64,000 bases of DNA from assembly GCA_016187335.1 (NCBI GenBank), contig JACPJW010000001.1, positions 671,159 to 735,158 of the forward strand. The letters run 5' to 3'. The notes under the pieces were generated by a model. It ran no database searches. It had not been told where the DNA came from and worked only from the letters and a program-made list of their open reading frames with translations. Made by a program: the position numbers and the translations under genes. Shown piece after piece: positions 8,817 to 64,000 of this stretch (positions are counted from its first letter, which is position 1; the number at the start of each line of letters is the position of its first letter). Source of the stretch: Candidatus Aenigmatarchaeota archaeon (GTDB lineage Archaea > Aenigmatarchaeota > Aenigmatarchaeia > GW2011-AR5).

Positions 8817-9209
8817 ATGAAATATAAGGCAGGCAGTTTCATGGCAGAAACCAGTTTACGCGCAGTAACTAATGGAAAAGAATGCAAAATGGTAGGCGGC
8901 GGCTATTGCCCAAAGCCCCTGGAAATCGCTGCTTCTTTCCTCAGTAGGAAGTGGACGCTAAGCATAATAGTAACGATAGGAAATTTCGGCTCGCTAAGGT
9001 TCAACGATTTGCTCAGGCGAATTGAAGGTATAACACAGAAAACATTGTCCGAAAGGCTGAAAGAGCTTGAGCGGCACAATATAATAATCCGTCGCGCTTT
9101 CAATGAAAAGCCTCCCCGTGTCGAATATTCGCTTACGCCAAACGGTCATAATGTTCGAAAAGCTGTTTTGCCGCTTCTGAAACTTGCTGAAAAAAAACAC
9201 TTTCATTAA
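8817..9209 (+). CDS. HxlR-family transcriptional regulator
   Basis: CP...LSRKWTLSIIVTIGNFGSLRFNDLLRRIEGITQKTLSERLKELERHNII...EYSLTPNG is the HxlR signature. Divergent from ccdA. Confidence 0.75.
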   Translation: MKYKAGSFMAETSLRAVTNGKECKMVGGGYCPKPLEIAASFLSRKWTLSIIVTIGNFGSLRFNDLLRRIEGITQKTLSERLKELERHNIIIRRAFNEKPPRVEYSLTPNGHNVRKAVLPLLKLAEKKHFH

Positions 9210-10178: not shown

Positions 10179-10646
10179 ATGGGAGCAGACTTTGACAGAA
10201 TTGCTGTGCAACATCCTTGCCCAAGATGCAATAACGCGATGCCTGAGTATCAAACCGGTCAATTGGGCGGTAAGATGCGTGTATATAGACTGGGAGAAAG
10301 AATTTACGCTGTTAACCAATCAGATTTTCGCAGATTAGAAGATATACCTGATTTTGAATTTCATCTTTATGATGTATGTGGTTTATGTTTAATAACGATA
10401 GAAGGAGACGGTATTGTAAGAGGTAATAAATTATGGAGTATCATAGAGAAAGGATACAGGGATGAACGTGCATCGCCGATAATCGACTACGATCATCCTA
10501 TGGAAGTACCCGAACGTTACACAATAGAAACAGTTCTTATAGGAGAAAAACCGGCTAAAGTAAGAGTTCCCGTGGGTAAAAAAATTGTTTATCCACAGGA
10601 ACAGCCGTTTATTCCTAACGAAAGAGTTATCGCGACTCTTGAATGA
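10179..10646 (+). CDS. Hypothetical protein with CPRC...CGLC (possible zinc ribbon)
   Basis: ORF only; no family recognised. Confidence 0.3.
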   Translation: MGADFDRIAVQHPCPRCNNAMPEYQTGQLGGKMRVYRLGERIYAVNQSDFRRLEDIPDFEFHLYDVCGLCLITIEGDGIVRGNKLWSIIEKGYRDERASPIIDYDHPMEVPERYTIETVLIGEKPAKVRVPVGKKIVYPQEQPFIPNERVIATLE

Positions 10647-12390: not shown

Positions 12391-12759
12391 ATGAAACTGG
12401 CACTGGAATTCCGTAAAAGAATTCCTTTTCTGAGGCTTATTCCAGATAAAGTATATTTTGACTTGAACTTTGACGAATTCTTTCTCCCGGATGATGAAAT
12501 CAATGAACTTCGGAAAAGCCTTGAATCAATGCTGAATCATTATGTCATGACTTACAAGACAAATGGATTTGACGATAAAATGCCCAAAGAAAAACACCTG
12601 TGCTTCAACCTGGAAATAGCAGAATTGAATGTCAGGCAGATGAAAATTTTAAGCGATTTTGAAAGTATTGCTAAAAGAAAAGGCGTCAGTTTTTGCGTCT
12701 ATCGAAAGCCGCTTAAACTGGTCCCACAAATTGACTTAAAAGCTTTCCCGCGTTATTAA
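12391..12759 (+). CDS. Hypothetical protein
   Basis: ORF only. Confidence 0.3.
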   Translation: MKLALEFRKRIPFLRLIPDKVYFDLNFDEFFLPDDEINELRKSLESMLNHYVMTYKTNGFDDKMPKEKHLCFNLEIAELNVRQMKILSDFESIAKRKGVSFCVYRKPLKLVPQIDLKAFPRY

Positions 12760-21730: not shown

Positions 21731-22279
21731 TCAGCGATATACCTCTTCAAGAAGGAAAACTTCAGGGCCCGGTATGACATCTTCGTGTGCTTTGAGCCAA
21801 ACTAACGGAAATCTTTCTCTTCCGGCATCCCGCTCCAAAAATTTTTCTTTCCATTCAGGGTTCAATGCAGTCTGGAGGCCAAGTCCCTGCCCCTGATAGC
21901 CGAAACGGGCAGCTTCCAGAGGATCGCCTTTAAGCGCATGAAGCAATTCGAGGAAATCAGGCTTTGGTATTTCTACCACGCGTCTGGAAGTTGGGTCATA
22001 TATTGAAACTATTCTAATTCCCGGATATGCCTCTAAACTTTTTCTGTCAGCAGCTAAAGCCATAGGGTCGATTCTTCTTAACTGCTCTAATGGCGTATTA
22101 GCCCCTTCTCCAAGGATTTCGCCACGTTCGTAAGCATCTCTTCTGGCGGCTGCAACAGCCTGTCTGAGACTTGCCTGAAAAATTTCGGGTTCTCTGGTTG
22201 GTTTCACTATACCCCTGTAGACATTTGAAGGCAGTCTTCCACGAAATTCATAAAGAGGTTGGCCAAACATAATATTCAC
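21731..22279 (-). CDS. Hypothetical protein
   Basis: ORF only. Confidence 0.3.
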   Translation of the reverse strand: MNIMFGQPLYEFRGRLPSNVYRGIVKPTREPEIFQASLRQAVAAARRDAYERGEILGEGANTPLEQLRRIDPMALAADRKSLEAYPGIRIVSIYDPTSRRVVEIPKPDFLELLHALKGDPLEAARFGYQGQGLGLQTALNPEWKEKFLERDAGRERFPLVWLKAHEDVIPGPEVFLLEEVYR

Positions 22280-33151: not shown

Positions 33152-33940
33152 TCATCTCGCCCCTGCGGCTTCCCTTTCTATTCTTTCCTTCTCGCGCAGC
33201 GCCGTTGAATCCTGCGAGCCGTGATACGCCGCAAGAATTTCTTCGGCCAACGCCTGCTCAATTCCGCGCTTGCTGTGGAAGGATTTCCTGTAGGTTCCCT
33301 GCGCGAAATACCGCAGCGTCTTGTCAACGCGCCTCTGCGGCGCCGTGATAACCGATTCCCTTGCCATTATGCTTCCCAGCTGGTAAGAAATTATTTCCTC
33401 GCGGACCGCCGCGTTTTCTATGGCGCGGACGAGAACTTCCACGGGATTCTTGTTTTCCTTTTTCTCGATGATTTCCAGGGCCTTTTCCACGGCTTTCAGG
33501 CAGTTCATGAGCCCGCCGGCCAGAGGGCCCGAAGTCAGGCGGTGCCTTTTTCCGGTGTGCCCCGGGACCATCATGTGCAGGGCAAGCCTTTCAGCAACGT
33601 GCATCTTTGATTTGTGGAATCTTCCGCGATGGATTCCGGCGCTTCTTGGAAGCAGTCTGGGCTCAAGGTTTATGTAAGGCCTCAGGCTCAGGTCATTTAC
33701 AATAACGTTGCTGTCCCATCTTCCGAAGAGCTTCAAGTCGAATTTTGTCTTTTCCCTTTTCTTTATCTCCACGCGCCTTGGTCTTCTGTCAAAACTTTTT
33801 CTGAATTCTCTGCGTTCGCCGAACTTGCGGCCTGACTGCCTTTCAACGGCCGCGCCTCTCTGGTCTTTTCCTCTCATTCCTTCATTTCTGCCGCGCATGT
33901 TTTCATTTCTCATGATATCACATTTTTTAAAAAACATCAA
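33152..33940 (-). CDS. rps7: 30S ribosomal protein S7 with an Arg/Gly/Lys-rich N-terminal extension
   Basis: The S7 core starts at LKLFGRWD. It is preceded by about 55-70 aa (MRGRNEGMRGKDQRG...RRPRRVEIKKREK). Several candidate Met starts. Confidence 0.85.
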   Translation of the reverse strand: MMFFKKCDIMRNENMRGRNEGMRGKDQRGAAVERQSGRKFGERREFRKSFDRRPRRVEIKKREKTKFDLKLFGRWDSNVIVNDLSLRPYINLEPRLLPRSAGIHRGRFHKSKMHVAERLALHMMVPGHTGKRHRLTSGPLAGGLMNCLKAVEKALEIIEKKENKNPVEVLVRAIENAAVREEIISYQLGSIMARESVITAPQRRVDKTLRYFAQGTYRKSFHSKRGIEQALAEEILAAYHGSQDSTALREKERIEREAAGAR

Positions 33941-34008: not shown

Positions 34009-34434
34009 TTATCTCGTCGCCTTCTGCTTCTTGCCTGTCCTTATCTGCTCAAGGGAAATATCGTTGACTTTTATGACCCTGTACTTGATGCCTGATTGGG
34101 AACCTACAGCTCCGCCCTGCGAGCCGCCCATCCCCTCGATGACGACCTGGTCGTGCTCCGAGATGAAGTTTATCGCCCCTGTTCTCGGAACGAAGGCCGT
34201 GACCTGCTTGCCGTTTTTAATCAAGCGGACGCGGACGCACTTGATCAGGCCCGAGGACGGCTGCTTCTGCTCCACGACGCGCTTTTCCAAGACAATCCCT
34301 TTTGCCTGCGGCGCGCCCTCAAGAGGGTCAAACTTTTTCTTTATGTTCAGCATGCGCGTCCTGTATTTGATGTCGCGCCACCTGAACGCTTTCCTGTCCT
34401 TCGTCAGCTTCCTTGCACTGAATTCTCCGGGCAT
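34009..34434 (-). CDS. rps12: 30S ribosomal protein S12
   Basis: [15 protein letters not shown]...[20 protein letters not shown]. Confidence 0.95.
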
Positions 34435-34493: not shown

Positions 34494-35270
34494 ATGAAAT
34501 CACCAGAACCACAGGAAGTATCATTAAGGGAACAGTTAGGGAAAGTGGGACTCGATAGCGCGGCCAGAGACGGGGCGTTTCAACTAGTTAAAATATATGA
34601 ATCTTCTCCTCCTGTCCCTGTAATTTCAATTCAGACGACAAGGGTTTTTGGAGACATAGAGCCTTATACTTCTAGCTCTAGGCATTTAGTTTTTCCTTAT
34701 GGGAATGCTGTCCTAAAAAGCGAAGATGAAAATTGGAAATGCATAAGACAGCAAACTAAAACGCGACCCGAAACTTTAAACGAGTTTCACTTCGCTATTG
34801 GATATTCCAATAGGGGATTGCCTGTTGTCAGGCCAATATGCGTAATTCATGCTGTTGAAGAGGACGACTTTTTGCTTGTCGAACCGAAAGGATTTGATTT
34901 GAGGCTTGGGATGGAATATAATTTGTTGTCTAATTTGCCCGCGACCGAAGAAGAAGCCCGGGAAACACTAAGAGCCTTGGGCAGATTTTTTGTTGCCTTG
35001 AAACGGGCTGATAGAGCTTACCAGCCGAATGTTCTTTATTATGAACGATTCCCTTTCGAACATTTGATTCGTTTTGGTGAAAACGGAAGTTATCAGGTAC
35101 TTGTTACGGATAATCCTGCGTTTGTTCAGGAAGATATTGATGCGCCCGGAGGATATTTATCTGATGTTATAGCGCTATTTGAAGGGTACAAGAATAAAGA
35201 AGTATCGGAATTTGCTCTGCGGGCGCTAAGAGAGGGTCTTGAGCCGGAAATAATTATCACTTCACCCTGA
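34494..35270 (+). CDS. Orphan protein on the opposite strand between rps12 and nusA
   Basis: 258-aa ORF with lower GC than its neighbours; no family recognised. Confidence 0.4.
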   Translation: MKSPEPQEVSLREQLGKVGLDSAARDGAFQLVKIYESSPPVPVISIQTTRVFGDIEPYTSSSRHLVFPYGNAVLKSEDENWKCIRQQTKTRPETLNEFHFAIGYSNRGLPVVRPICVIHAVEEDDFLLVEPKGFDLRLGMEYNLLSNLPATEEEARETLRALGRFFVALKRADRAYQPNVLYYERFPFEHLIRFGENGSYQVLVTDNPAFVQEDIDAPGGYLSDVIALFEGYKNKEVSEFALRALREGLEPEIIITSP

Positions 35271-35661
35271 AGTGCTGGACCTCGAAAAACCTTTCCAGGA
35301 GCATTTTTATGATGCGGATGTTCTTGCCGCTCCTGCCGATGACGCGCGCGCGGTCCTGCGGCTTTATTTTCACGACGACTTCCTTGTCGTCTATATTCAC
35401 TTCCTGCGCCTCGGGAACAAGGTTGCGGATGAACCGCTCAAGGTCGTCGGAATATTCAAAGACCTTTATGTTTTTCTTGAAGACGCGCTCGGCATTGCGG
35501 ATGGTCGAGCCGCCCTTGCCCACTGCAAGCCCGTACTGCCCCTCGCCGACGACAAAATAAAGCTCGTCGTCTTCGTCGATGCAGTCAATGACGGAGCATC
35601 TAGTCAGGTTGTTGAAAAGGTTTATGCATTGTATCGTGTTCGTGTCAAGCGTCACTTTCAT
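35257..35661 (-). CDS. nusA: Archaeal NusA-like KH-domain transcription factor
   Basis: Two KH-like GxxG motifs (VGKGGSTI, IGRSGKNI); conserved position after rpl30e. Confidence 0.8.
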   Translation of the reverse strand: MKVTLDTNTIQCINLFNNLTRCSVIDCIDEDDELYFVVGEGQYGLAVGKGGSTIRNAERVFKKNIKVFEYSDDLERFIRNLVPEAQEVNIDDKEVVVKIKPQDRARVIGRSGKNIRIIKMLLERFFEVQHFRVK

Positions 35662-36075: not shown

Positions 36076-38553
36076 CTATTTTTTCTTCTTCATCTTTGAC
36101 AAATCCATCGTGAGCTCGACCATGCCCGTGCCGATGGGTGCCAGCTGCCCTACCAGCACGTTCTCGATTATCCCGTCCATGGTGTCCTTCTCGCCGTAGA
36201 ACGACGCGTTTATCAGGTGCCTTTTTGTTTCCTCAAAGTTCGCCCGCGCCAGGACGGACGCCTTTTTGCCGGATACGCCGTATCGCCCGATGTCCCTGAC
36301 CTCCCCGGTGAATGTCATGATGTCAGCAAGAAGCATCAGATGCCTTACATCAACCTCAAGGCCCTGCTCGTCTAAGGTTTCCTTGGCTTCCTGCAAAATA
36401 ACATTTCTCGTGGCTTCTATGCCGAGTATCTCGAAAATCTGGTGCACGTCGTTCGTCCTTGTCCTTTTTGCGTCAACTTCGTTTATCTGCAGGACCTTTT
36501 TCAGGTTAGTCCCTGCGGTCTGTATGACCCAGTCGTCGCCCTCGCGCACCACGACGACATTCTCTATCCCCTTGATGCCGTCAATGTGCATCTTCAGGAC
36601 CTTGTTTTTTATTTTTCTGAGGTTCTTGACGTCGCTTTCCTTCGGCTTTATGTAGACATTCCCGCCCCTGAAGGAAATGGCCGCCTCTTTGACGTATTTG
36701 GAGACCATTGATTTGAGCTGCTCTTTGTGCTTTTCGCCCTCAAGCTCCAGCTCAATCTGCATGTCAATAAGGTCTATGGAATCGGAAAGTATCACATCTT
36801 GCACTTTTACGGATTTCATCCTGTTCGCAATTTCCTTTGCCTTTTCCTTGCTGTTGTATTCTTCTTTCAGGTAAATGATCATGTTCTTCTCAAAAGTCTT
36901 GCGGGCGTCAAAAATCTCTATGAGCCTCGGCAGGCCCTGCGTGACCTTGCTCAGCCTGTCTGACTGCGAAGCCAGCGTATAGGAACGCATTGTGTTGTGT
37001 GTAATAATGCCTTCAAATGTCGTGAATGTTTCCGTGCCTTCAACCGTCAGATCGTAGACATATCCAGAAGAAGGCAAAACTTCTGTTATTTCAGTTATCT
37101 CATCCCAAACGACATCAGATGCATGCATCTTTCTGAGTATCGAAAGCTCTTCAGTCACATCAATGTGATTTTTCTTTGCAATCTCGTTGAATAATACAAT
37201 ATATCTAAGTAGGGCTTCTTTTCCAATTTTCTGCCTTTTTGTGAAGCTGTTTACATACCTGCTTGGATAACTCAGTTTCTTCGCAAGCTTTGGAAGCAGA
37301 TCGTCGAAGCCGCCTACAAGCTCGACAAAATCTTGCTTGATGGGTTTGCTAGCACACAGTACTCCAAGATTCTCGGCCTTTTTGGCGGAACTAAACCCGA
37401 TTTTTTGCCGGAATACAGATGCGTATTTTGCGGGTATTGTTAGTGTATATTGCTTGCCTCTTCCTTTGTAAGAGAATATGCCAAATCTCGCTAAGAGTAG
37501 TGAGATGCCGTCTATAAGCTCTTTTGAATTTGAAGAAGCCCTTATTACGCCTCTCTCGACAGATACATTCCCATCGCCGTCGAAATAAGCCTGCAAAAGC
37601 GCCGATACGAATTTCTCATCAGCACTGTACGCAAAATCAGGGACTCTCTTGTTCCTTGATCCACTACCGCATGTTTTTGCAAGTAGGGCGGAAAGAATAG
37701 CGGAATTTACATGAATATCATGGCCGTTTGCAAATCCTCTTGTGTTGTCATATTCATTATAGGTCAGGCCGAATGAAGAGGCAAATTGTCTTATTCTCCC
37801 GAGGAAAATTTCATTTGTGCTTGATATGCATACAAAATTCGGAGTGCAGTTTCCTTCGGAGAGATAAGCGCCGAAAATATATCCCGTAACCTCATTCAGC
37901 GGAAAGATTTCCGGCAAAGGCTTTTTGGCACGTGAAAAATGGGTTTCTGCAATCGATTTTAGGTTAATAGAATCTATGCAGTTTTCAGGAAGCAGCTTGA
38001 TTACCGGTATTCTCTCGCCTTTTCTCAGGTCTTTTCCGGAAACAGCAACTATCTTGTTATGCTTTCTTATAACAAATGAATGAGAATCTGTGGCTATTAT
38101 CTCGCGCCCTGACAGTGTTCTTATTCTCAGCAGCCTTTCCGGTGATTTGTGTCTGCTGCATGCAAGAACCTTTTTCCATTCGATTTTCTCCCCCTGATTT
38201 ATGCTGGGAACGTATATTTCCATGCCCGAAAGATCGCATATATCCCAGCCATTCTCGTTCATAGAACCCAGATTTTCTATTGATTCATCGGTAAAGCGGC
38301 TAATTTCAGAAATGGCAACCCGGTCTTTATGCTTGATAATTATTTTTTCCTTGGCGTCAATGCTCATCTGCGTCGCCGGTTCGCTGATTGATTGCGCTGC
38401 AACGACGCCTATTGCCTCGCCGGGTTCGTAAAGGTATTTCACGATAAGATGATTTAATTTTTCCAGCAGTTCTTCTTTTTTCTTCCCTTCAATCCCGTGC
38501 TTCCTGCAGTATTCCTCGAATTTCAGCAACACTTCCTTTGAAAGATAAGCCAT
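36076..38553 (-). CDS. rpoA2: DNA-directed RNA polymerase subunit A'' interrupted by an intein
   Basis: The exteins give AAQSISEPATQM | TMRSYTLAS... plus the conserved C-terminal A'' sequence. 825 aa compared with about 370-390 aa expected. Confidence 0.9.
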   Translation of the reverse strand: MAYLSKEVLLKFEEYCRKHGIEGKKKEELLEKLNHLIVKYLYEPGEAIGVVAAQSISEPATQMSIDAKEKIIIKHKDRVAISEISRFTDESIENLGSMNENGWDICDLSGMEIYVPSINQGEKIEWKKVLACSRHKSPERLLRIRTLSGREIIATDSHSFVIRKHNKIVAVSGKDLRKGERIPVIKLLPENCIDSINLKSIAETHFSRAKKPLPEIFPLNEVTGYIFGAYLSEGNCTPNFVCISSTNEIFLGRIRQFASSFGLTYNEYDNTRGFANGHDIHVNSAILSALLAKTCGSGSRNKRVPDFAYSADEKFVSALLQAYFDGDGNVSVERGVIRASSNSKELIDGISLLLARFGIFSYKGRGKQYTLTIPAKYASVFRQKIGFSSAKKAENLGVLCASKPIKQDFVELVGGFDDLLPKLAKKLSYPSRYVNSFTKRQKIGKEALLRYIVLFNEIAKKNHIDVTEELSILRKMHASDVVWDEITEITEVLPSSGYVYDLTVEGTETFTTFEGIITHNTMRSYTLASQSDRLSKVTQGLPRLIEIFDARKTFEKNMIIYLKEEYNSKEKAKEIANRMKSVKVQDVILSDSIDLIDMQIELELEGEKHKEQLKSMVSKYVKEAAISFRGGNVYIKPKESDVKNLRKIKNKVLKMHIDGIKGIENVVVVREGDDWVIQTAGTNLKKVLQINEVDAKRTRTNDVHQIFEILGIEATRNVILQEAKETLDEQGLEVDVRHLMLLADIMTFTGEVRDIGRYGVSGKKASVLARANFEETKRHLINASFYGEKDTMDGIIENVLVGQLAPIGTGMVELTMDLSKMKKKK
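36994..38364 (-). mobile_element. Intein (457 aa) with a LAGLIDADG homing-endonuclease domain inside RpoA''
   Basis: Ser1 (SIDAKEK), block B TDSH, LAGLIDADG motifs GYIFGAYLSEGN and LLQAYFDGDGNV, C-terminal VYDLTVE...GIITHN followed by Thr+1. Confidence 0.8.
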
Positions 38554-38598: not shown

Positions 38599-41079
38599 TT
38601 ATTTCACGCCGTGGAAAAGCTTTTCAATGTCAACCTTGCCCGCGTCGCTTTTGGCGGGGTCAACCATGTCCTCGCCCGCGACAAACTGTATGATAAAGTT
38701 CTTGCTGTCGCGCACGGTGCCGTCGTATTCCACTCTCAGGTCCTGCAGCGCGTTGACCAGGCGGCGCTCCATGTACCCGGAGTGCCTTGTGTGCAGCGAC
38801 TTGTCCATCAGGTTCTCCCTGCTGTTCATGGCGTCAAAGAAAAACTCCACGGGGTCAAGACCTTTCTTATAGCCGCTCGAAACGAAGCCGTGGGATTTCG
38901 CGCCAAGGTCGCCTCTTTCAAACAGCGACAATGTCCTTCCCACGAAGCCCCTGTGTATCCTCTCGCCTTCCAGGGCCTCCTGCCCGACAAACGCGCACAT
39001 CTGCGTAAGGTTGACAAAGGAGCCTCTCGCGCCTGTTATAGCCATTATGACCGCTGTCGTCAGAGGCAGGTCTTTCTTGACGGTTTCTGACGCGCTGTTT
39101 GACGCGAGGCCGCCTAATTGCAGTATTTTGTTTTCCAGGGTCATCTCCGGCGTCAGTCCCCCTGTCTTTTCAAGGCGGCCTGCTTTGTAGTCCCTGACCA
39201 GCCTCGAAATGCTTTCGTTGTACTCATCAATTACTTTTTCAATATTGTTTTTCGCGCGCGTTGAAATGTCTATGTCGCCGACGGATATGCTGAATCCTTT
39301 CCTTGTGATGACTTCCAGGGCGAGCTTGGAAACCCTGTCGATGAATTCCCTCGCTGCGGAGTGGCCGTATATCCTTTCTATTATGTCGATGAGCTTTGCT
39401 TTTTTCTCTCCCAGCGCGTCGTCATCAATGACGCCCCTGAGAAGCCGCCCGTTCTTTATCACGACAGCTTCACCTGTGGACGACTTGAATTCAATGCTCA
39501 GGTCTTTCGGCAATAAGTAAGAAAAAATCTCCTTTCCCGTGTAGGTATCCTTGACCTCAGGGAGCTCCATCCCTATAGACATCAGCAGCTCCGCGGCTTC
39601 TTTTCGGCTGAGCTTTGTCTCGTCCCTTGTAAGCAGATAAGAGCCGGTTATGTGGTCGTGCTTGCACGCAACTATGGGCAGCCCGTATCGCGGCGAGCGG
39701 ATGTGGTTTTCCACGGCCATCAGCATCTCCGCTTCCGTCTGCGCTTCCTCTGTCTGCGGAACGTGCAGGTTCATTTCGTCGCCGTCAAAGTCCGCGTTGT
39801 ATGGTATCGTCACCGCGAGGTTCAGCCTGAAAGTCCTGTAAGGCATGATGCGCGCGCGGTGGCCCATCATGCTCATGCGATGCAGCGACGGCTGCCTGTT
39901 CATGACCGTTATGTCGTTGTCCTGCAGATGGCGCTCCACGACGTAGCCGGTATCAATCTCTTCCGCTACGTCTTTTTTGTTTTCCTCTGTTATTTTTTTT
40001 CTTATCCCGTCCGGCCTCACGACATAATTCGCGCCCGGATGCACGCCCGGCCCGTTAAGTATGTATTTCTTGACGGCATCAAGGCTGTTTTTCGTCACCT
40101 TCACGGGAACGGTAAGCTCTTTCGCGATTTCCATGGGTATTCCCACTTCGCTTATTGAAATATTGGGGTCCGGCGTGACAACGGTTCTCGCGGAAAAATT
40201 AACACGCTTTCCGGAAAGGTTTCCGCGGAACCTCCCCTCTTTTTTGCTCAGCCTCTGCATCAGCGTTTTCAGCGCCCTGCCTGACCTGTGGCGCGCCGGC
40301 GGCAGCGTTGAAATCTCGTTGCTCATGAACGTTGAGATGTGGTATTGCAGTAATTCCCAGATGTCGGCGATGATAAAATCAGGCGCGCCGATTTCCAGAT
40401 TTTTCTTCAGTCTTTCGTTTATCCTTACGACGTCAACCAGCTTGTGCGTCAAGTCATCTTCCGAGCGTTCGCCTGTTTCCAGGGTGATTGAAGGGCGCAC
40501 GGTCACGGGAGGCACGGGCAGTATGGTAAGGACAAACCATTCAGGCCTTCCGCCTTTCACCCTGAGCAGCTGTAAATCTTCATCAGTGATTTTTTCCAGC
40601 CGCTGCCTTATTTCCTCGGGATTCATCTCTGTGCTGCCTTCGTTGAATGTGGTCGGCTTCTGGAACGTCAGCTCCCTTTGCTTTTCGCCGCAGTGTATGC
40701 ACATCTTCGGCTTCTTCTTGTACAGTTCGTTGAGCGGGTTGCCCATCTTCTTCAGGTCTTCCAGCTTCGCCAGCGGACGCGAGCATTTCCTGCATATCGA
40801 GCGCAGCACCATAAAAATCTTTTTTCCGTACAGCGGGTGTATTGCCGGCTTCGTCAACTCAAGGTAGCCGAAATGCCCCAGGCATTGCCCTATGGAGCCG
40901 CCGCACGTCCTGCACCGCAGGCCGGGGTCGACAACGCCGAGGTGCAGGTCAGTCAGCCCGCCGTCTATCGGGTAGCCGTCAGGATCGTAAAGCTCCGCGT
41001 GCTCAATCTTCACCGCCGACATTTCCTTAATCATGCGCGGCGACAGGAATCCGAACTCGATTGCTTTTACTTTTGCCAT
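38599..41079 (-). CDS. rpoA1: DNA-directed RNA polymerase subunit A'
   Basis: Zinc motif CRTCGG...CLGHFG; catalytic YNADFDGDEMN. Confidence 0.95.
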   Translation of the reverse strand: MAKVKAIEFGFLSPRMIKEMSAVKIEHAELYDPDGYPIDGGLTDLHLGVVDPGLRCRTCGGSIGQCLGHFGYLELTKPAIHPLYGKKIFMVLRSICRKCSRPLAKLEDLKKMGNPLNELYKKKPKMCIHCGEKQRELTFQKPTTFNEGSTEMNPEEIRQRLEKITDEDLQLLRVKGGRPEWFVLTILPVPPVTVRPSITLETGERSEDDLTHKLVDVVRINERLKKNLEIGAPDFIIADIWELLQYHISTFMSNEISTLPPARHRSGRALKTLMQRLSKKEGRFRGNLSGKRVNFSARTVVTPDPNISISEVGIPMEIAKELTVPVKVTKNSLDAVKKYILNGPGVHPGANYVVRPDGIRKKITEENKKDVAEEIDTGYVVERHLQDNDITVMNRQPSLHRMSMMGHRARIMPYRTFRLNLAVTIPYNADFDGDEMNLHVPQTEEAQTEAEMLMAVENHIRSPRYGLPIVACKHDHITGSYLLTRDETKLSRKEAAELLMSIGMELPEVKDTYTGKEIFSYLLPKDLSIEFKSSTGEAVVIKNGRLLRGVIDDDALGEKKAKLIDIIERIYGHSAAREFIDRVSKLALEVITRKGFSISVGDIDISTRAKNNIEKVIDEYNESISRLVRDYKAGRLEKTGGLTPEMTLENKILQLGGLASNSASETVKKDLPLTTAVIMAITGARGSFVNLTQMCAFVGQEALEGERIHRGFVGRTLSLFERGDLGAKSHGFVSSGYKKGLDPVEFFFDAMNSRENLMDKSLHTRHSGYMERRLVNALQDLRVEYDGTVRDSKNFIIQFVAGEDMVDPAKSDAGKVDIEKLFHGVK

Positions 41080-41080
41080 G

Positions 41081-41404
41081 TCAATCCCTCATCTTAATGC
41101 CGGTTTCTTTTCCAAGAAATCTTCTCTCTTCTGCTGTCAGATCCATTCTTGTCATTCCTGTTCTTTCCACCAGTCTTTCTATTTCTGCTTCGGCGTATTC
41201 CAAAAGAGGCCCGGTAGCAATTACAGCAAGCTGTTCTTTGTCTCTTTGAATCAGGGACACGCTGTACCTTTCTGCAATCAGCTGCGCAAAATATCTTCCC
41301 GCGTCAGGGTGTTCCACCAGTCTGATACCTGCTATTCCCTGGGCAAATCTCCTGACTCCTTCCGGAATTTCTTCATTCCAATGATAAATGTCAGCATTGA
41401 ACAT
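41081..41404 (-). CDS. 107-aa orphan protein inserted between rpoB and rpoA1
   Basis: Its ATG lies 2 nt after the rpoB stop, with GGAGG inside the last rpoB codons. Its TGA lies 1 nt before the rpoA1 ATG, and its last codons (ATGAGGGAT) supply the rpoA1 SD. Confidence 0.55.
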   Translation of the reverse strand: MFNADIYHWNEEIPEGVRRFAQGIAGIRLVEHPDAGRYFAQLIAERYSVSLIQRDKEQLAVIATGPLLEYAEAEIERLVERTGMTRMDLTAEERRFLGKETGIKMRD

Positions 41405-41406
41405 GC

Positions 41407-44400
41407 TTATTCCTCCGCGATTATCTTCGGGTATATTCCCAGGGACTTCAGCTCGTCCAGCATCAGTTTGAACGCGTAGCTGATGTCAATGTCAATGATT
41501 TTTGATTTCTTGCATACGCCGCAGTATTTTTTGCCCTTGACGCGGTCTTCCACGGCGATCAGGCCGCAGCGCTCGCATACGGGCACGCTGTATTTGTCGC
41601 TGCTGAAGCGCTCTTTGAGCAGGAGGGCGCTGCCATGAGCGATTAAGCAGTCCTTTTCCATTTCCCCCAGGCGCAAGCCGCCCTGCTTCGCCCTTCCGGC
41701 AGTAGGCTGCTTGGTCAGCAGCGTTACAGGCCCGCGGGCTCTGGACTGTATCTTGTTCGCAACCATATGATGCAGCTTCTGGTAATAGCACGGCCCTACA
41801 AGTATGCGCGCCTCGAGCACGCGCCCTGTCACGCCGTCGTACATTATTTCCTTGCCGTCGTCGCGGAACCCGAGCTTTTCCAGTGTCTGTCTCAGGCTTT
41901 CTTCCGTGACGTCGTTGAAGGCGGAGCCGTCCACGGGCATGCCTGATAATGCCGAGACTTTCGAGGCGATGATTTCAAGCATCTGGCCTATTGTCATCCT
42001 GCTCGGTATCGCGTGCGGGTTGACTATTATGTCAGGCGTGATGCCGCCCGTTGTGAATGGCATGTTTTCTTCAGGCACGATCAGGGATATGACTCCTTTC
42101 TGGCCGTGGCGCGACGCGAACTTGTCGCCAAGTTCCGGCACCCTTTCGCTTCTGACGTTCACTTTCACTAGTTTGTTTCCTGCCGACGTTTCCGAGAGGA
42201 ATACGCCGTCAACAATGCCGTCCTCGCCGTGCCTTATCGTTTCCGATGTTTCCCTGCGGTTCTCTGTCTCGGCCATAAAGCTTTCCACGGGCCCGATGAA
42301 GCGGAGCGGCGACACCTTGCCGACAAGAACATCTCCGGAAATGACAGAAATTTCCCTGTTCACTATCCCGTCCTTGTCGAGGTTTGCGTAAGCTTCCTCG
42401 GTGCGGTAGCCGTTGACGGCCTTGTCCGGTATTTTTATCTCGTCCTTTTCAATGCCCCAGTATTTCTTTTCTTCCGTTGAGTACGCCCTGAAGAAGAACG
42501 AGCGGCCGAAGCCCCTGTCGAGCGAAGCCTTGTTGAATACCAGGCCGTCCTCCATGTTGTACCCCTTGTAGCTCATGATGGCAAGGACGATGTTCTGGCC
42601 CTGCGGGTGCTCTTCCAGTCCGATTTCTTTGCCGACGACCGTGTTCACCAAAGGCATCTGCGTGTAAACAAGGACGTCCGCCTTCGTTTCTGTTCTTATT
42701 GAAAAGTTTGTCGTGTAAATGCCCAGCGCCTGGCCGGACATCTTCGCGCCGAAGTTGACGCGGTCCCCCCTGTTCCTCGTAGGGAACGGGACAAGCGATG
42801 CCGACAAGCCTAAAATCACGCCCGGGTGCACTTCCAGGTGCGTGTGGTCTTTTGACAGGTTATCCGCAGTCAGCGCAACAAGCATGCTGTCTTCTTCCTG
42901 GGCGTCTAGATATTCCACGATGCCTTCCTTCAGCAGCTCGCCCCACGCCATCTCGCCATTTACCAGCTTTTCCAGGTGCTTTTCAGTCAGCCTTGCTTTC
43001 CCGTTTTCAACAATAATCATCGGCCTTTGCAGCCTTCCTGAATCCGTGTTCACGAAAACCTCCTGGAAATCCTCCTCAACGGCAACATTGATGTAGCGGC
43101 TTATCGCGCCGTTTCTTCTCTTCTGCTTTATTTTTTCTGCGAATTCCCTGGGCTTGTCCGTCGTGCCTATGATATTCCCGTTAAGGAAAATAGTGTACCC
43201 GCCGCTCTCCTTTGACGCCGTTTGCGCGATGAGCTCGTTGTCCTTTCGCGGCGCTGTATCGGAGATGACGGCAAAGGTGGCTAAATACTTGCGGAGGCCT
43301 ATGTTGACGCCTTCGGGAGTTTCCTCGGCGCACAGCCTTCCCCAGTGCGTTGCGTGCAATGCCCTCGCTTCAAAGTGCTCCTGTGAGGACGACAAAGGCG
43401 ATATGACGTTTCTCAGGTGGGCTATTGTTCTCACGTAATTTGTCCTTTCCAGCCGCTGGCAGACGCCCGTCCTGCCGCCGATCCACTGGCCCGTCGCCAT
43501 GTGCGAAATAATCCTTTTTGTCAGGTAATCCGACTCCACTATGGATTTTATTGAAGGCAGCTTTCCGCGCTTCACCAGTTTCTGGTAAGAATAAACTATC
43601 CTTGAAACCAGGCCGTACTTGCCGAGGAGGATTGAGCGGAAAAGTATTTCCATGAAATCCCCGACGAGGCGCAGGCGCTTGTTTGAATAATGGTCAATGT
43701 CCTGCTCCTTCGCTTTTTTCAGGCCCAGGCGCAAAAGCTTTCGGACAACCTTGCAGAGGTAAACTGCCTTTTCTTTTCTTGCCTTCTTGTCCTGGCCGAT
43801 GTGGGGAAGCAGGTATTTGTCCAGGATGTCGTTCACGCGCTTGTCGCGGTATTCCTGCTGAGGTATCTTCAGCTTCTTCCCTAAATGGTCCTTCGCTTCC
43901 TCGACGCTCTTGACGTCGTATTCATACAGGTTGAAGTAAATTTCCTGGACCTCGTCCTTTTCACCGGTTATGGCCTCGATTATCTCTTTGTCCGTCTCCA
44001 TTCCCAGAGCGCGAAGGAGCACTACTACAGGCAGTTTTTTCAGGTTGGCAAAGGAAATTGTTATGATGCCCCCTTTCCTTTCCAGGAGATGCCTCTGGAC
44101 GAAGCCGGACGACTCGCTGTTGATGCGGGCGGTTTCGTTCTCCCCCTTTGTCTCGATGACGGGCCTGTTCGACAGGACTTCTTCCACCATCACGATTACG
44201 CGCTCGGTTCCGTTGATAATGAAATAGCCGCCCGGGTCGTTAGGGTCTTCGCCCTCTTCAGCCAGCTGCTCTTCGGTGAGCCCTTCAAGCCAGCACAGCT
44301 TTGATTTCAGCATTATGGGCAGATCCCCGAGTTTTACTTCCTGCGGCTCCTGCTCAACGCCGTTTATTATAGGTATTATTTCAACATGTATCGGCGCGGA

Positions 44401-44676
44401 ATAAGTAAGGTCCCTGATGCGCGCCTCCAGCGGCGTTATCCTCCTTACGGCGCCGTCCGCTTCCTTCAGGACAGGCTTGGGTATTTTCACCTTCCCGAGC
44501 TTTATCTTGAATTCCGCAAGCTCCGGCGTTTCCAGCTCGATTTCCCCTATCTCGTCAATTATCTTCTGTATCCTGAAGTCGATGAACTCGTTGAAAGACT
44601 CGACCTGATGGTTGACAAAGCCCACTGATTTTTTGTAAGAAGAAAGCAGCGTTCCGTACGTTTTCATCTTGTCCAT
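41407..44676 (-). CDS. rpoB: DNA-directed RNA polymerase subunit B (unsplit)
   Basis: 1089 aa; GDKFASRHGQKG, C-terminal zinc ribbon CERCG...CGVC. Confidence 0.95.
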   Translation of the reverse strand: MDKMKTYGTLLSSYKKSVGFVNHQVESFNEFIDFRIQKIIDEIGEIELETPELAEFKIKLGKVKIPKPVLKEADGAVRRITPLEARIRDLTYSAPIHVEIIPIINGVEQEPQEVKLGDLPIMLKSKLCWLEGLTEEQLAEEGEDPNDPGGYFIINGTERVIVMVEEVLSNRPVIETKGENETARINSESSGFVQRHLLERKGGIITISFANLKKLPVVVLLRALGMETDKEIIEAITGEKDEVQEIYFNLYEYDVKSVEEAKDHLGKKLKIPQQEYRDKRVNDILDKYLLPHIGQDKKARKEKAVYLCKVVRKLLRLGLKKAKEQDIDHYSNKRLRLVGDFMEILFRSILLGKYGLVSRIVYSYQKLVKRGKLPSIKSIVESDYLTKRIISHMATGQWIGGRTGVCQRLERTNYVRTIAHLRNVISPLSSSQEHFEARALHATHWGRLCAEETPEGVNIGLRKYLATFAVISDTAPRKDNELIAQTASKESGGYTIFLNGNIIGTTDKPREFAEKIKQKRRNGAISRYINVAVEEDFQEVFVNTDSGRLQRPMIIVENGKARLTEKHLEKLVNGEMAWGELLKEGIVEYLDAQEEDSMLVALTADNLSKDHTHLEVHPGVILGLSASLVPFPTRNRGDRVNFGAKMSGQALGIYTTNFSIRTETKADVLVYTQMPLVNTVVGKEIGLEEHPQGQNIVLAIMSYKGYNMEDGLVFNKASLDRGFGRSFFFRAYSTEEKKYWGIEKDEIKIPDKAVNGYRTEEAYANLDKDGIVNREISVISGDVLVGKVSPLRFIGPVESFMAETENRRETSETIRHGEDGIVDGVFLSETSAGNKLVKVNVRSERVPELGDKFASRHGQKGVISLIVPEENMPFTTGGITPDIIVNPHAIPSRMTIGQMLEIIASKVSALSGMPVDGSAFNDVTEESLRQTLEKLGFRDDGKEIMYDGVTGRVLEARILVGPCYYQKLHHMVANKIQSRARGPVTLLTKQPTAGRAKQGGLRLGEMEKDCLIAHGSALLLKERFSSDKYSVPVCERCGLIAVEDRVKGKKYCGVCKKSKIIDIDISYAFKLMLDELKSLGIYPKIIAEE

Positions 44677-44718: not shown

Positions 44719-44979
44719 TCAAATGACAACCCTGTAGTAAAAATATTCTAATGCGACCGGGGATTTCCTGGTTATGCGCAGCACGTCGCCTTTTTTGGCG
44801 CCAAGCAGCTTCACTACCGGGTCTTCCTCGCGTATTTTCGGCAGCTGCCCCGAAGAAACATTCAGCCTTTCCAGCAGCTCCGCTTTCTCCTCGCCGCTCA
44901 TGATTTCGTGCTTAGGCACTAGGTCGCTCTGGAATATGTCTATCTTCTCTTCCTGCACTGCCTTTTCTTTTTCTGCCAC
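44719..44979 (-). CDS. rpoH: DNA-directed RNA polymerase subunit H
   Basis: LVPKHEIMSGEEKAELLERL...LPKI...DPV is the RpoH/Rpb5 C-terminal signature. GTG start with AGGTGA upstream. Confidence 0.85.
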   Translation of the reverse strand: MAEKEKAVQEEKIDIFQSDLVPKHEIMSGEEKAELLERLNVSSGQLPKIREEDPVVKLLGAKKGDVLRITRKSPVALEYFYYRVVI

Positions 44980-45992: not shown

Positions 45993-46328
45993 ATGAGTTC
46001 ACCTAAAGACTATCAGAAAGTCTCTCCTCTAAGTTTTGAAAACCGTTGTAGAGAAATAAGTCTTATAACCATTCAAACCCTGCCGCGCGCCATCAATGAC
46101 AAATATAAGGTCAGCAACGTCCTGGCGTTCACAGCTTTCGCCATTACTTGCCATATCGCTGGAGAGCTTAACTTCCAGGTTCGGAATGGATCTGGGTGTG
46201 CCCTCTCCGCCTTGGTCGCCAACCACATTACTATTCAAGGATAAAGGATTTAAAGACTTTAAAAACCGTCAGGACGAAACAGGATTTTTCTGGGTAAAAG
46301 CCGAAACCCGCCTTCCGTTTTTCTTCAA

Positions 46329-63374: not shown

Positions 63375-64000
63375 CTAAGACTGTGGTTGGTTGGGATTCG
63401 GGGGCTCTTGATAGGCTGCGTTGCGGAATACCGCAAACTGGTATATCCCGCGGATTGTGTTCATTTCAAACAGGTTCGCTTTCTCCGTGGTGCCAGTTAG
63501 TGCAGCGAACTCATTCCGGCTTAGGAAGTGCCGACCGGCGTCGCGTAGGAACTTCAGGTAGTAGCGGTGCCGCACTCTCCCCCACGTGCTTTCGAACTGT
63601 GGGTCCATAATTTCGATAATGCACGATATCTTGCCGACTCGGATCACTTCATTAATCAGGGTCTTGACGGCGCGCACGTTCTCCATGTGATGTAGTACAT
63701 TCTTGCAGAGCACAAAGTCGAAGTGGTTGTCACCAAATGGGAGGCGTCGCGCGTCATGATTAGTAAACAGGATGAATGAGCTGATATTGCGGAACGTAGG
63801 GCTACTAAATCGTTCGCTCATGAGCTTGATCTGGCTCCACGACACATCGTTTCCGACCACTAGCCGCACACCGGGTAGCTGTGTAAACCTGAGAACGGCG
63901 GTATTCTCGCCGCACGCTACGTCAAGTATCGTGTCATGCTTGCACGCCTGCGTGATTTCGAGGATCTTGGCTTCTAGATCCTGGATCGAGTGCTGGAAGT
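63375..64000 (-). CDS. Class I SAM-dependent methyltransferase (5' end beyond the window)
   Basis: The frame stays open to base 64000. Motif I ILDVACGEN; VLCKNVLHHMEN. Confidence 0.65.
   Translation of the reverse strand, partial: FQHSIQDLEAKILEITQACKHDTILDVACGENTAVLRFTQLPGVRLVVGNDVSWSQIKLMSERFSSPTFRNISSFILFTNHDARRLPFGDNHFDFVLCKNVLHHMENVRAVKTLINEVIRVGKISCIIEIMDPQFESTWGRVRHRYYLKFLRDAGRHFLSRNEFAALTGTTEKANLFEMNTIRGIYQFAVFRNAAYQEPPNPNQPQS

Follow-up and report, generated by a model that had tools for sequence, protein, structure and literature searches.

The gene cluster rpoH-rpoB-rpoA1-rpoA2 is among the most conserved gene arrays of the archaea, and it encodes an enzyme, the RNA polymerase (RNAP), for which lineage-specific archaeal subunits are known, e.g., Rpo13 of the Sulfolobales and Rpo8/RpoG of the Crenarchaeota. 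Within polycistronic operons in general, termination-reinitiation is a general mechanism for coupling the translation of neighboring genes. The canonical rpoH-B-A1-A2 operon is found in Methanococcus, and one study of it shows that subunit balance matters for RNAP assembly, which a surplus of one subunit disturbs (PMC10450193). Here we describe ORF107, an open reading frame (ORF) of 107 codons wedged between rpoB and rpoA1 in a stretch of 64,000 nucleotides (called the window from here on) of contig JACPJW010000001.1 from a Candidatus Aenigmatarchaeota archaeon. ORF107 turns out to be an ordinary orphan in an unusual place, and the novel part is the phylum-wide plasticity of the boundaries of rpoA1, one of which is a hot-spot where ORF107 was probably inserted as a young accessory passenger gene of a single species-level population of this DPANN phylum.

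ORF107 is inside the rpoH-rpoB-rpoA1-rpoA2 transcription unit, on the minus strand, with no room for a promoter of its own. The 3′ end of rpoB reads ...GCG GAG GAA TAA, followed by GC and then by the ORF107 ATG (41404-41402), whose position is 2 nt past the rpoB stop; the 3′ end of ORF107 reads ...ATG AGG GAT TGA (the TGA at 41083-41081), followed by a single C and then by the rpoA1 ATG (41079-41077), i.e., ORF107 ends 1 nt before the start of rpoA1. Both starts have a Shine-Dalgarno (SD)-like motif embedded in the last codons of the gene upstream, GGAGGA in rpoB and GAGGGAT in ORF107 itself. All this is as the initial annotation had described it, except that the strand was left unstated there. 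The annotation was also right in that ORF107 is no fragment of RpoB or RpoA1 (the A′ subunit), because the C-terminus of the former (GIYPKIIAEE, then the stop) and the N-terminus of the latter (MAKVKAIEFG) are both as in relatives. The two large genes share one frame, 330 nt apart, and ORF107 is in a different one. A read-through polyprotein made of RpoB, the insert and RpoA1 is ruled out, since the rpoB frame hits many stops inside the insert, and for the same reason, together with its own ATG and TGA and its differing frame, ORF107 was rejected as an intein.

Several lines of evidence show ORF107 to be a genuine and correctly assembled gene. An open frame of 107 codons arises in only 12 of 20000 shuffles (0.06%), and the codon log-odds, scored with a model trained on the genes of the window, reach 0.37 bits per codon in frame, as compared to 0.34 +/- 0.16 in the window's real genes and about -0.5 in the off-frames of ORF107. 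With codon statistics specific to its frame, a frame longer than chance would leave open and an SD followed by an ATG, ORF107 passes the test for a protein-coding gene, and these sequence properties suggest that ORF107 is probably translated. The region has no excess of RNA structure (z = -0.67) and no match in Rfam, so that a structured RNA or a riboswitch was rejected as an alternative to a gene. Misassembly at the junction, a possibility raised at the outset, is excluded, as the identical 331-nt junction occurs in nine single-run Logan assemblies (SRR12113385 to SRR12113431), and a search for an ORF-less allele among contigs encoding the identical RpoA1 found ORF107 in every one of them.

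In composition, ORF107 differs from its neighbors. Its GC content is 0.448 vs 0.53, its GC at third codon positions (GC3) is 0.39 vs 0.69 in rpoB and rpoA1, and its arginine codons are AGA (9) and AGG (3) with no CGN at all, vs roughly 40% CGN in the neighbors, which bears out the lower GC and AGA/AGG-rich usage noted initially. Yet this composition is not foreign, but that of the genome's accessory genes. Genes of the window fall into two GC3 groups (about 0.3-0.46 and about 0.57-0.75), and ORF107 fits the large low-GC3, AGA-using class, in which five of the six members tested are without any Pfam domain.

The protein has no detectable relatives. No homologue was found among about 15 billion proteins overall; a word-indexed search of 5.8 billion clusters returned the ORF107 protein as its own sole match, and phmmer, run exhaustively over 1.84 billion representatives, returned nothing but the protein itself and one repeat artefact (P0002, E = 2.9e-9, 10 stretches). 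The latter, rejected as a homologue, is a eukaryote-type protein of 10-11 CCDC53/WASH repeats (Pfam PF10152), each of which matches a short motif (L.EHP...YF..L) at 20-25 bits, and its E-value is inflated because this one motif recurs about ten times; PF10152 as such does not match ORF107. Nothing significant came out of Pfam, NCBIfam, PHROGs, PADLOC and the PDB sequences, so that the initial statement that the protein matches nothing recognisable stands. A viral origin was looked for as well, and there was no relative in IMG/VR and no PHROG. No further copy, at the DNA or protein level, exists in the window or in 100 related loci (designated here by L and a number), and ORF107 does not seem to be a duplication or frame shift from elsewhere in the window, where tblastx gave nothing below E = 0.04 and a tblastn match at 63804-63899 had E = 0.1-0.2. 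A single-sequence AlphaFold2 (AF2) model was of low confidence (predicted local distance difference test, pLDDT, 52), and the best Foldseek matches to it, KH domains at E >= 0.06 and a template-modeling (TM) score of about 0.35, are uninformative. Judging from the sequence, ORF107 probably encodes a genuine protein of 12 kDa that is soluble, acidic and of the alpha/beta type.

A winged-helix lead is suggestive at most. Residues 5-89 of ORF107 align end to end with the 90-residue LysR-type winged-helix domain and linker helix of PDB entry 7trv_A, at a non-significant E = 0.56, and this is a single LysR regulator out of the many in the PDB. The segment IAERYSVSLIQRDKEQLAVIATG resembles LEerLGvrLldRstRrvalTeaG of the LysR-type domain, and the helix (35-47), hairpin (50-64) and helix (65-82) predicted by AF2 would follow the order of recognition helix, wing and linker helix. 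Residues 43-68 weakly resemble the LysR-type wing, with 6.0 bits, a score equalled by 7 of 2000 shuffles for a hypothesis picked post hoc, using a home-made helix-turn-helix (HTH) profile of 10 sequences from plasmid-borne regulators. Pfam HTH_1 is not reported for ORF107 even at E <= 10, and Foldseek with the model found no winged-helix proteins at useful scores. We regard a small DNA-binding protein as an unlikely, though not negligible, identity for ORF107.

The comparison with relatives shows how the junction itself evolves. RpoA1 and RpoB have their best genome matches, at about 80% identity, in Candidatus Aenigmatarchaeota, and the nearest relative is the metagenome contig L062 (88.7% identity over the RpoB C-terminus and RpoA1 N-terminus). 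ORF107 is absent from all 92 related loci in which it was sought, L062 included, where rpoB and rpoA1 are separated by a 175-nt non-coding spacer (L062:3826-4000) with a GC of 0.27, a strong hairpin and no trace of ORF107. Neither this spacer nor the junctions of other relatives show any DNA or six-frame similarity that would make them decayed forms of it. All loci were measured for the spacing between rpoB stop and rpoA1 start, and removal of duplicates left 73 non-redundant Aenigmatarchaeota loci. The spacing does not exceed 20 nt in 29 of these, where it typically lies between -2 and +6 nt and the SD is within the last rpoB codons; in 10 it is 21-119 nt, in nine 120-249 nt and in 18 at least 250 nt, whilst the remaining seven read through. 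The same GGAGGA-type motif serves rpoA1 in the insert-free relatives (junction comparison, 40 loci), which means that the start of ORF107 occupies the place that the rpoA1 start has in them, behind the GGAGGA of the last rpoB codons. In a neighbor-joining ordering of RpoB/RpoA1, junctions with inserts are scattered among tight ones, and the outgroups have tight junctions; it follows that tight coupling is ancestral and that inserts arose many times independently.

All six of the read-through junctions inspected (L021, L023, L026, L028, L058 and L077) are clean in-frame rpoB-rpoA1 fusions without stop or start codon, e.g., ...GIYTKINIEGENTTKIKSIDFGF..., with linkers such as ...KINIEGENTTKIKSIDFGF... 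They occur in several metagenome-assembled genomes (MAGs) and contigs from different studies and are an archaeal counterpart of the bacterial beta-beta′ fusions. In the literature searched, which did not extend to all journals, neither genes at the rpoB/rpoA1 boundary nor RpoB-RpoA′ fusions are described for DPANN.

As to what the large inserts contain, 16 of the 18 rpoB/rpoA1 inserts of at least 250 nt have a same-strand ORF filling half or more of the gap, and in 10 of the 18 this ORF bridges it from stop to start as ORF107 does (with at most 10 nt between the rpoB stop and its start and at most 25 nt between its end and the rpoA1 start). L071 and L073 have bridging ORFs that are very short, at 42-48 amino acids (aa). 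The inserts are lower in GC than their flanks, and inserted ORFs elsewhere end with SD-plus-stop arrangements comparable to that of ORF107. The insert ORFs are mostly unrelated to one another, the exceptions being the pairs L049 and L078, L013b and L024, and L044 and L081; a database search with the first pair returned those two proteins only. At one locus, the junction is occupied by a nitroreductase gene (PF00881, E = 1.6e-23; L034:1361-1897), coupled on both sides, because of which we conclude that ordinary metabolic genes can land there too. The rpoA1/rpoA2 junction is alike, with at least 250 nt in 12 of 65 loci and many coupled ORFs of 55-130 aa. Such distances are seen in 2 of 55 loci at rpoH/rpoB, 3 of 45 at rpoA2/L30e and 1 of 43 at L30e/nusA (6 of 143 in total), and Fisher tests against these three junctions give p = 1.5e-5 for rpoB/rpoA1 and p = 0.002 for rpoA1/rpoA2, p-values that take no account of shared ancestry among the loci. 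Apparent in-frame fusions are found on this side of rpoA1 as well: L054 (a Nanohaloarchaeota MAG) and L098/L099 appear to have an unsplit A subunit with a bridge of about 30 residues.

Other rpoB/rpoA1 junctions hold AT-rich non-coding spacers (L012:5846-6000 and the one of L062 given above, with similar ones in L011, L063-L066, L068, L080 and L081), and the GC of the non-coding spacers ranges over 0.27-0.40. They start with a hairpin built on CCTTTCTTT/AAGAAAGG motifs, the starting hairpin in some being one of 19 bp with U4 behind it, and the L012 spacer folds better than 200 of 200 shuffles (z = -3.3). Going by these sequence features, the spacers may be internal terminators, attenuators or processing sites.

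One group of junction ORFs is a protein family in its own right. Family A, whose members are about 100 aa long and share the core YAq.h.lPQEpDGSF...iEf.G, initially comprised six junction ORFs, five at rpoA1/rpoA2 (including a tandem pair in L044) and one at rpoB/rpoA1. A profile search of the 5.8-billion set returned the known members and a new one, P0009, which was found blind and sits between rpoA1 and an intein-bearing rpoA2. All seven members are thus at RNAP-operon junctions (six at rpoA1/rpoA2, one at rpoB/rpoA1), and the family has no known relatives. Its alignment-based AlphaFold model (pLDDT 88) is a ferredoxin-like beta-alpha-beta-beta-beta-alpha-beta sandwich without an informative neighbor in the PDB, and the ratio of nonsynonymous to synonymous substitution rates (dN/dS) of the pair P0005/P0009 is 0.26. 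It follows that a junction ORF can encode a genuine protein under selection and that at least this family occurs exclusively in RNAP operons. ORF107 does not belong to it (hmmsearch score -0.9, hhalign probability 0.3%), nor is it related to the other junction families (hhalign probability 0.3-0.4%); a likeness seen by eye between its 'RRFAQGIAGIRLVEHPDAGRYF', the family A core 'YAQKHGLPQERDGSF' and 'TTRRFIGIASVEPG' of L049 was refuted by these profile tests.

Taken together, these results are best explained, as we think probable, by ORF107 being a young passenger gene at a hot-spot junction. DNA carrying, or becoming, an ORF would have been inserted at the boundary between rpoB and rpoA1, where ORF107 would have taken over the ancestral SD of rpoA1, its own 3′ end supplying a replacement SD and a stop beside the rpoA1 ATG. 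Ribosomes ending rpoB would then reinitiate on ORF107 and those ending ORF107 would reinitiate on rpoA1, which would tie the production rate of ORF107 to that of RpoB and relay translation on to rpoA1. An essential operon may be expected to retain only those insertions that keep this relay, or that bring along a spacer with initiation signals of its own. Such a filter, which only arrangements with a translated rpoA1 would pass, accounts for the close fit of ORF107 with no need of a functional link to the polymerase, and the best reading of the coupling is that of a survival condition at this junction, not evidence of partnership with RNAP.

Four observations weigh against this interpretation. 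The statistics behind the hot-spot are blind to shared ancestry, as said. The nine copies of ORF107 are all identical, which leaves no variation to gauge selection on the protein and makes its dN/dS impossible to estimate. Family A, being limited to RNAP operons and under purifying selection, makes a functional tie to the polymerase conceivable for the class of junction ORFs as a whole. Finally, some relatives tolerate non-coding spacers of 150-250 nt between rpoB and rpoA1, and a relay ORF is therefore not strictly required.

Of the alternatives, the one that survives best, albeit as an unlikely one, is a translated ORF107 with a functionless product, the ORF being kept open only for the transit of ribosomes and perhaps having arisen de novo from an expanded spacer. 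The stop-to-start geometry shared by unrelated junction ORFs is consistent with it, as are the very short bridging ORFs, the AT-rich spacers of 150-300 nt that could have served as raw material at the same site, the lack of homologues of ORF107 and the low confidence of its AF2 model. A codon and amino-acid signal that is frame-specific and equals that of established genes would not be expected of a newly opened random frame, however, and the GC of ORF107 (0.45) is well over that of the non-coding spacers. Moreover, the toleration of ORF-free spacers shows that selection for a relay is not compulsory, and family A shows that well-folded proteins under selection do exist at these junctions.

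The alternative put forward by the initial annotation, namely a lineage-specific subunit or factor of RNAP, is in our opinion quite unlikely. In its most concrete form, ORF107 would be a species-specific RNAP-associated factor or extra subunit that binds near the clamp and is delivered in step with RpoB and RpoA′. The C-terminus of RpoB and the N-terminus of RpoA′ meet in the RNAP clamp, and the ability of relatives to fuse the two genes means that the products of the junction emerge side by side. The location of ORF107 inside the core operon, with coupling on both sides, the clustering of inserts on both sides of rpoA1 and not at the other junctions, and the example of family A, a small protein restricted to such junctions and kept by selection, all favor this idea. 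It is not supported in the main test, conservation: the annotation itself had named the absence of homologues as what would refute it, and ORF107 has none in the sets searched, is missing from the nearest relative, and is unrelated to family A or the other junction families. Nor does it resemble any known RNAP subunit or factor in Pfam, NCBIfam or the PDB. The inference from coupling to stoichiometric partnership fails as well, since coupling is an ancestral property of the site, where unrelated ORFs, the nitroreductase of L034 among them, hold the same coupled position. The disturbance of RNAP assembly by an excess of a single subunit in Methanococcus suggests that the content of the operon is tightly controlled (PMC10450193), which is no argument about ORF107 as such. 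A broader version, in which both junctions flanking rpoA1 host fast-turnover small proteins acting on or with RNAP, ORF107 being a private one and family A one more widely kept, strikes us as a similarly long shot. If it were so, candidates could be clamp-proximal modulators or small DNA-binding partners in dealings between symbiont and host or virus, delivered by translational coupling.

More improbable still is an origin of ORF107 as cargo, or as what is left, of a selfish element homing to the rpoB/rpoA1 boundary, in the manner of free-standing homing-endonuclease genes between conserved phage genes or of the rpoA2 intein. The same operon does carry a LAGLIDADG intein, the site was hit repeatedly and independently across the phylum, the GC of ORF107 is below that of its flanks, and the 14 nt ahead of the two ATGs are alike (GAGGAATAAGCATG and GAGGGATTGACATG), which could be taken for a target duplication. 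This last likeness, however, is explained by the constraints of SD, stop and start at both places, and no nuclease, integrase, transposase, toxin-antitoxin or defence signature was found in Pfam, NCBIfam, PHROGs or PADLOC. Mobility is also at odds with the make-up of the protein (two His, Cys absent) and with the lack of another copy in the window or in 100 related loci, of a viral relative and of flanking inverted repeats noticed in the sequence, and an element of this kind would be expected in more than one genome. Hence, of the initial suggestion of a selfish insertion adapted to the operon, the adapted insertion fits the data and the selfishness does not. A toxin-antitoxin or defence gene was considered as well and rejected, there being no PADLOC match and only a single gene flanked by rpoB and rpoA1. 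Lastly, a chance open frame in a non-coding spacer would account for the lack of homologues but is barely credible given its rarity among shuffles, the gene-like score in frame next to non-coding-like scores off frame, the exact stop-to-start fit with SD motifs and the absence of any RNA signal.

The features of the operon and the members of family A are listed in Table 1.

Table 1. Positions of the RNAP operon features in the window, and of the family A genes in related loci.
Feature	Position	Strand	Remarks
rpoH (Rpo5)	44719..44979	-	First gene of the operon, 86 aa; identified by its position and by matches in relatives; position identical in all Logan contigs
rpoB (Rpo2)	41407..44676	-	Unsplit, 1089 aa; TAA stop 41409-41407; Pfam RNA_pol_Rpb2_1 to _7; C-terminus aligns with relatives
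SD-like GGAGGA	41411..41416	-	In the terminal codons of rpoB; 6 nt ahead of the ORF107 ATG
ORF107	41081..41404	-	107 aa, 12.4 kDa, isoelectric point 5.3, 0 Cys, 2 His, no predicted membrane segment; orphan
SD-like GAGGGAT	41084..41090	-	In the terminal codons of ORF107; 4 nt ahead of the rpoA1 ATG
rpoA1 (Rpo1N / A′)	38599..41079	-	826 aa; Pfam RNA_pol_Rpb1_1 to _5; N-terminus normal
rpoA2 (Rpo1C / A″)	36076..38553	-	825 aa including a 457-aa LAGLIDADG intein
L30e, then NusA-type KH protein gene			Downstream of rpoA2
Family A genes	L066:3573-3887, L029:2522-2866, L081:6587-6892, L044:8498-8821 and 8849-9169, L102:3679-3984, L104:769-1068		Includes P0005-P0010

With the intein of rpoA2, the operon has two lineage-specific insertions. 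This intein spans aa 64-520 (window 36994-38364), with Pfam Intein_splicing and LAGLIDADG_3 located between the two parts of Rpb1_5, and interrupts RpoA″ between ...SEPATQM and TMRSY..., with a GC of 0.416 vs 0.49 in the exteins. The related contig L104 has an rpoA2 intein too, and L066, a close relative of L104, is without one. Yet another lineage-specific insertion, this time in the conserved cluster of RNAP, nusA and rps12-rps7-EF genes, is an ORF of 258 aa at 34494-35270 (+; GC3 0.34, no Pfam or PADLOC match), situated between the NusA-type KH gene (35257-35661, -) and rps12 (34009-34434, -), i.e., on the strand opposite to that of its flanking genes. Small ORFs of low GC3 (0.28-0.39) and rich in AGA also lie tightly between same-strand genes of high GC3 at 10179-10646 (+), 12391-12759 (+) and 21731-22279 (-), and the two of them that were tested have no Pfam match. 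In addition, the window contains a lone 5S rRNA gene (46109-46223, -) about 1.1 kb upstream of rpoH, no tRNA gene detectable by ARAGORN in its whole 64 kb, and an S7 ORF (33152-33940, -) that, counted from its first start codon, is 262 aa long, which would add an Arg/Gly/Glu-rich N-terminal extension of roughly 70 aa (MRNENMRGRNEGMRGKDQRG...).

Within one DPANN phylum, then, the boundaries of rpoA1 were repeatedly invaded by unrelated small genes, turned into structured spacers or lost by fusion. This suggests that an essential operon can offer new genes a place to land and to be expressed, as long as the translational relay is kept. The junction ORFs also make up a set of candidates for lineage-specific polymerase partners in uncultured organisms, with family A coming first and ORF107 being among the orphans, whilst the natural RpoB-RpoA′ and RpoA′-RpoA″ fusions bear on the assembly of RNAP and on the evolution of split and fused subunits. 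The lesson of ORF107 itself is one of caution, as a place in the operon and tight coupling are not enough to call a protein a subunit.

Set beside what is known, ORF107 is akin to the other junction ORFs of the Aenigmatarchaeota (family A and the pairs named above), which are likewise on the same strand, often fitted from stop to start and lower in GC than their flanks, whose range of 65-185 aa includes its size, and which have almost no homologues in public data either. There is no sequence relationship between ORF107 and these ORFs, however, and family A, unlike ORF107, has a confident model and a dN/dS. Like Rpo13 and Rpo8/RpoG, ORF107 encodes about 100 aa, is taxonomically restricted and has no bacterial counterpart; those subunits, in contrast, are conserved over an order or phylum, are defined by co-purification and structures, and are encoded away from rpoB/rpoA1, whereas ORF107 belongs to one population and has no detectable relatives. 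With phage morons and free-standing homing-endonuclease genes it shares a distinct composition, a place wedged between conserved essential genes, a recurrent site, and presence in one genome but not in close relatives. Morons, however, come with a promoter and terminator of their own, and homing-endonuclease genes are recognised by GIY-YIG, HNH or LAGLIDADG motifs; both kinds of feature are absent from ORF107, which depends on the transcription of the operon and on translational coupling. In this last respect it conforms to termination-reinitiation as known from other operons, with only 1-2 nt between stop and start, and an SD inside the gene upstream, at either end of ORF107, the difference being that the coupled partner is here a newcomer, which has apparently taken over the ancestral initiation site of rpoA1.

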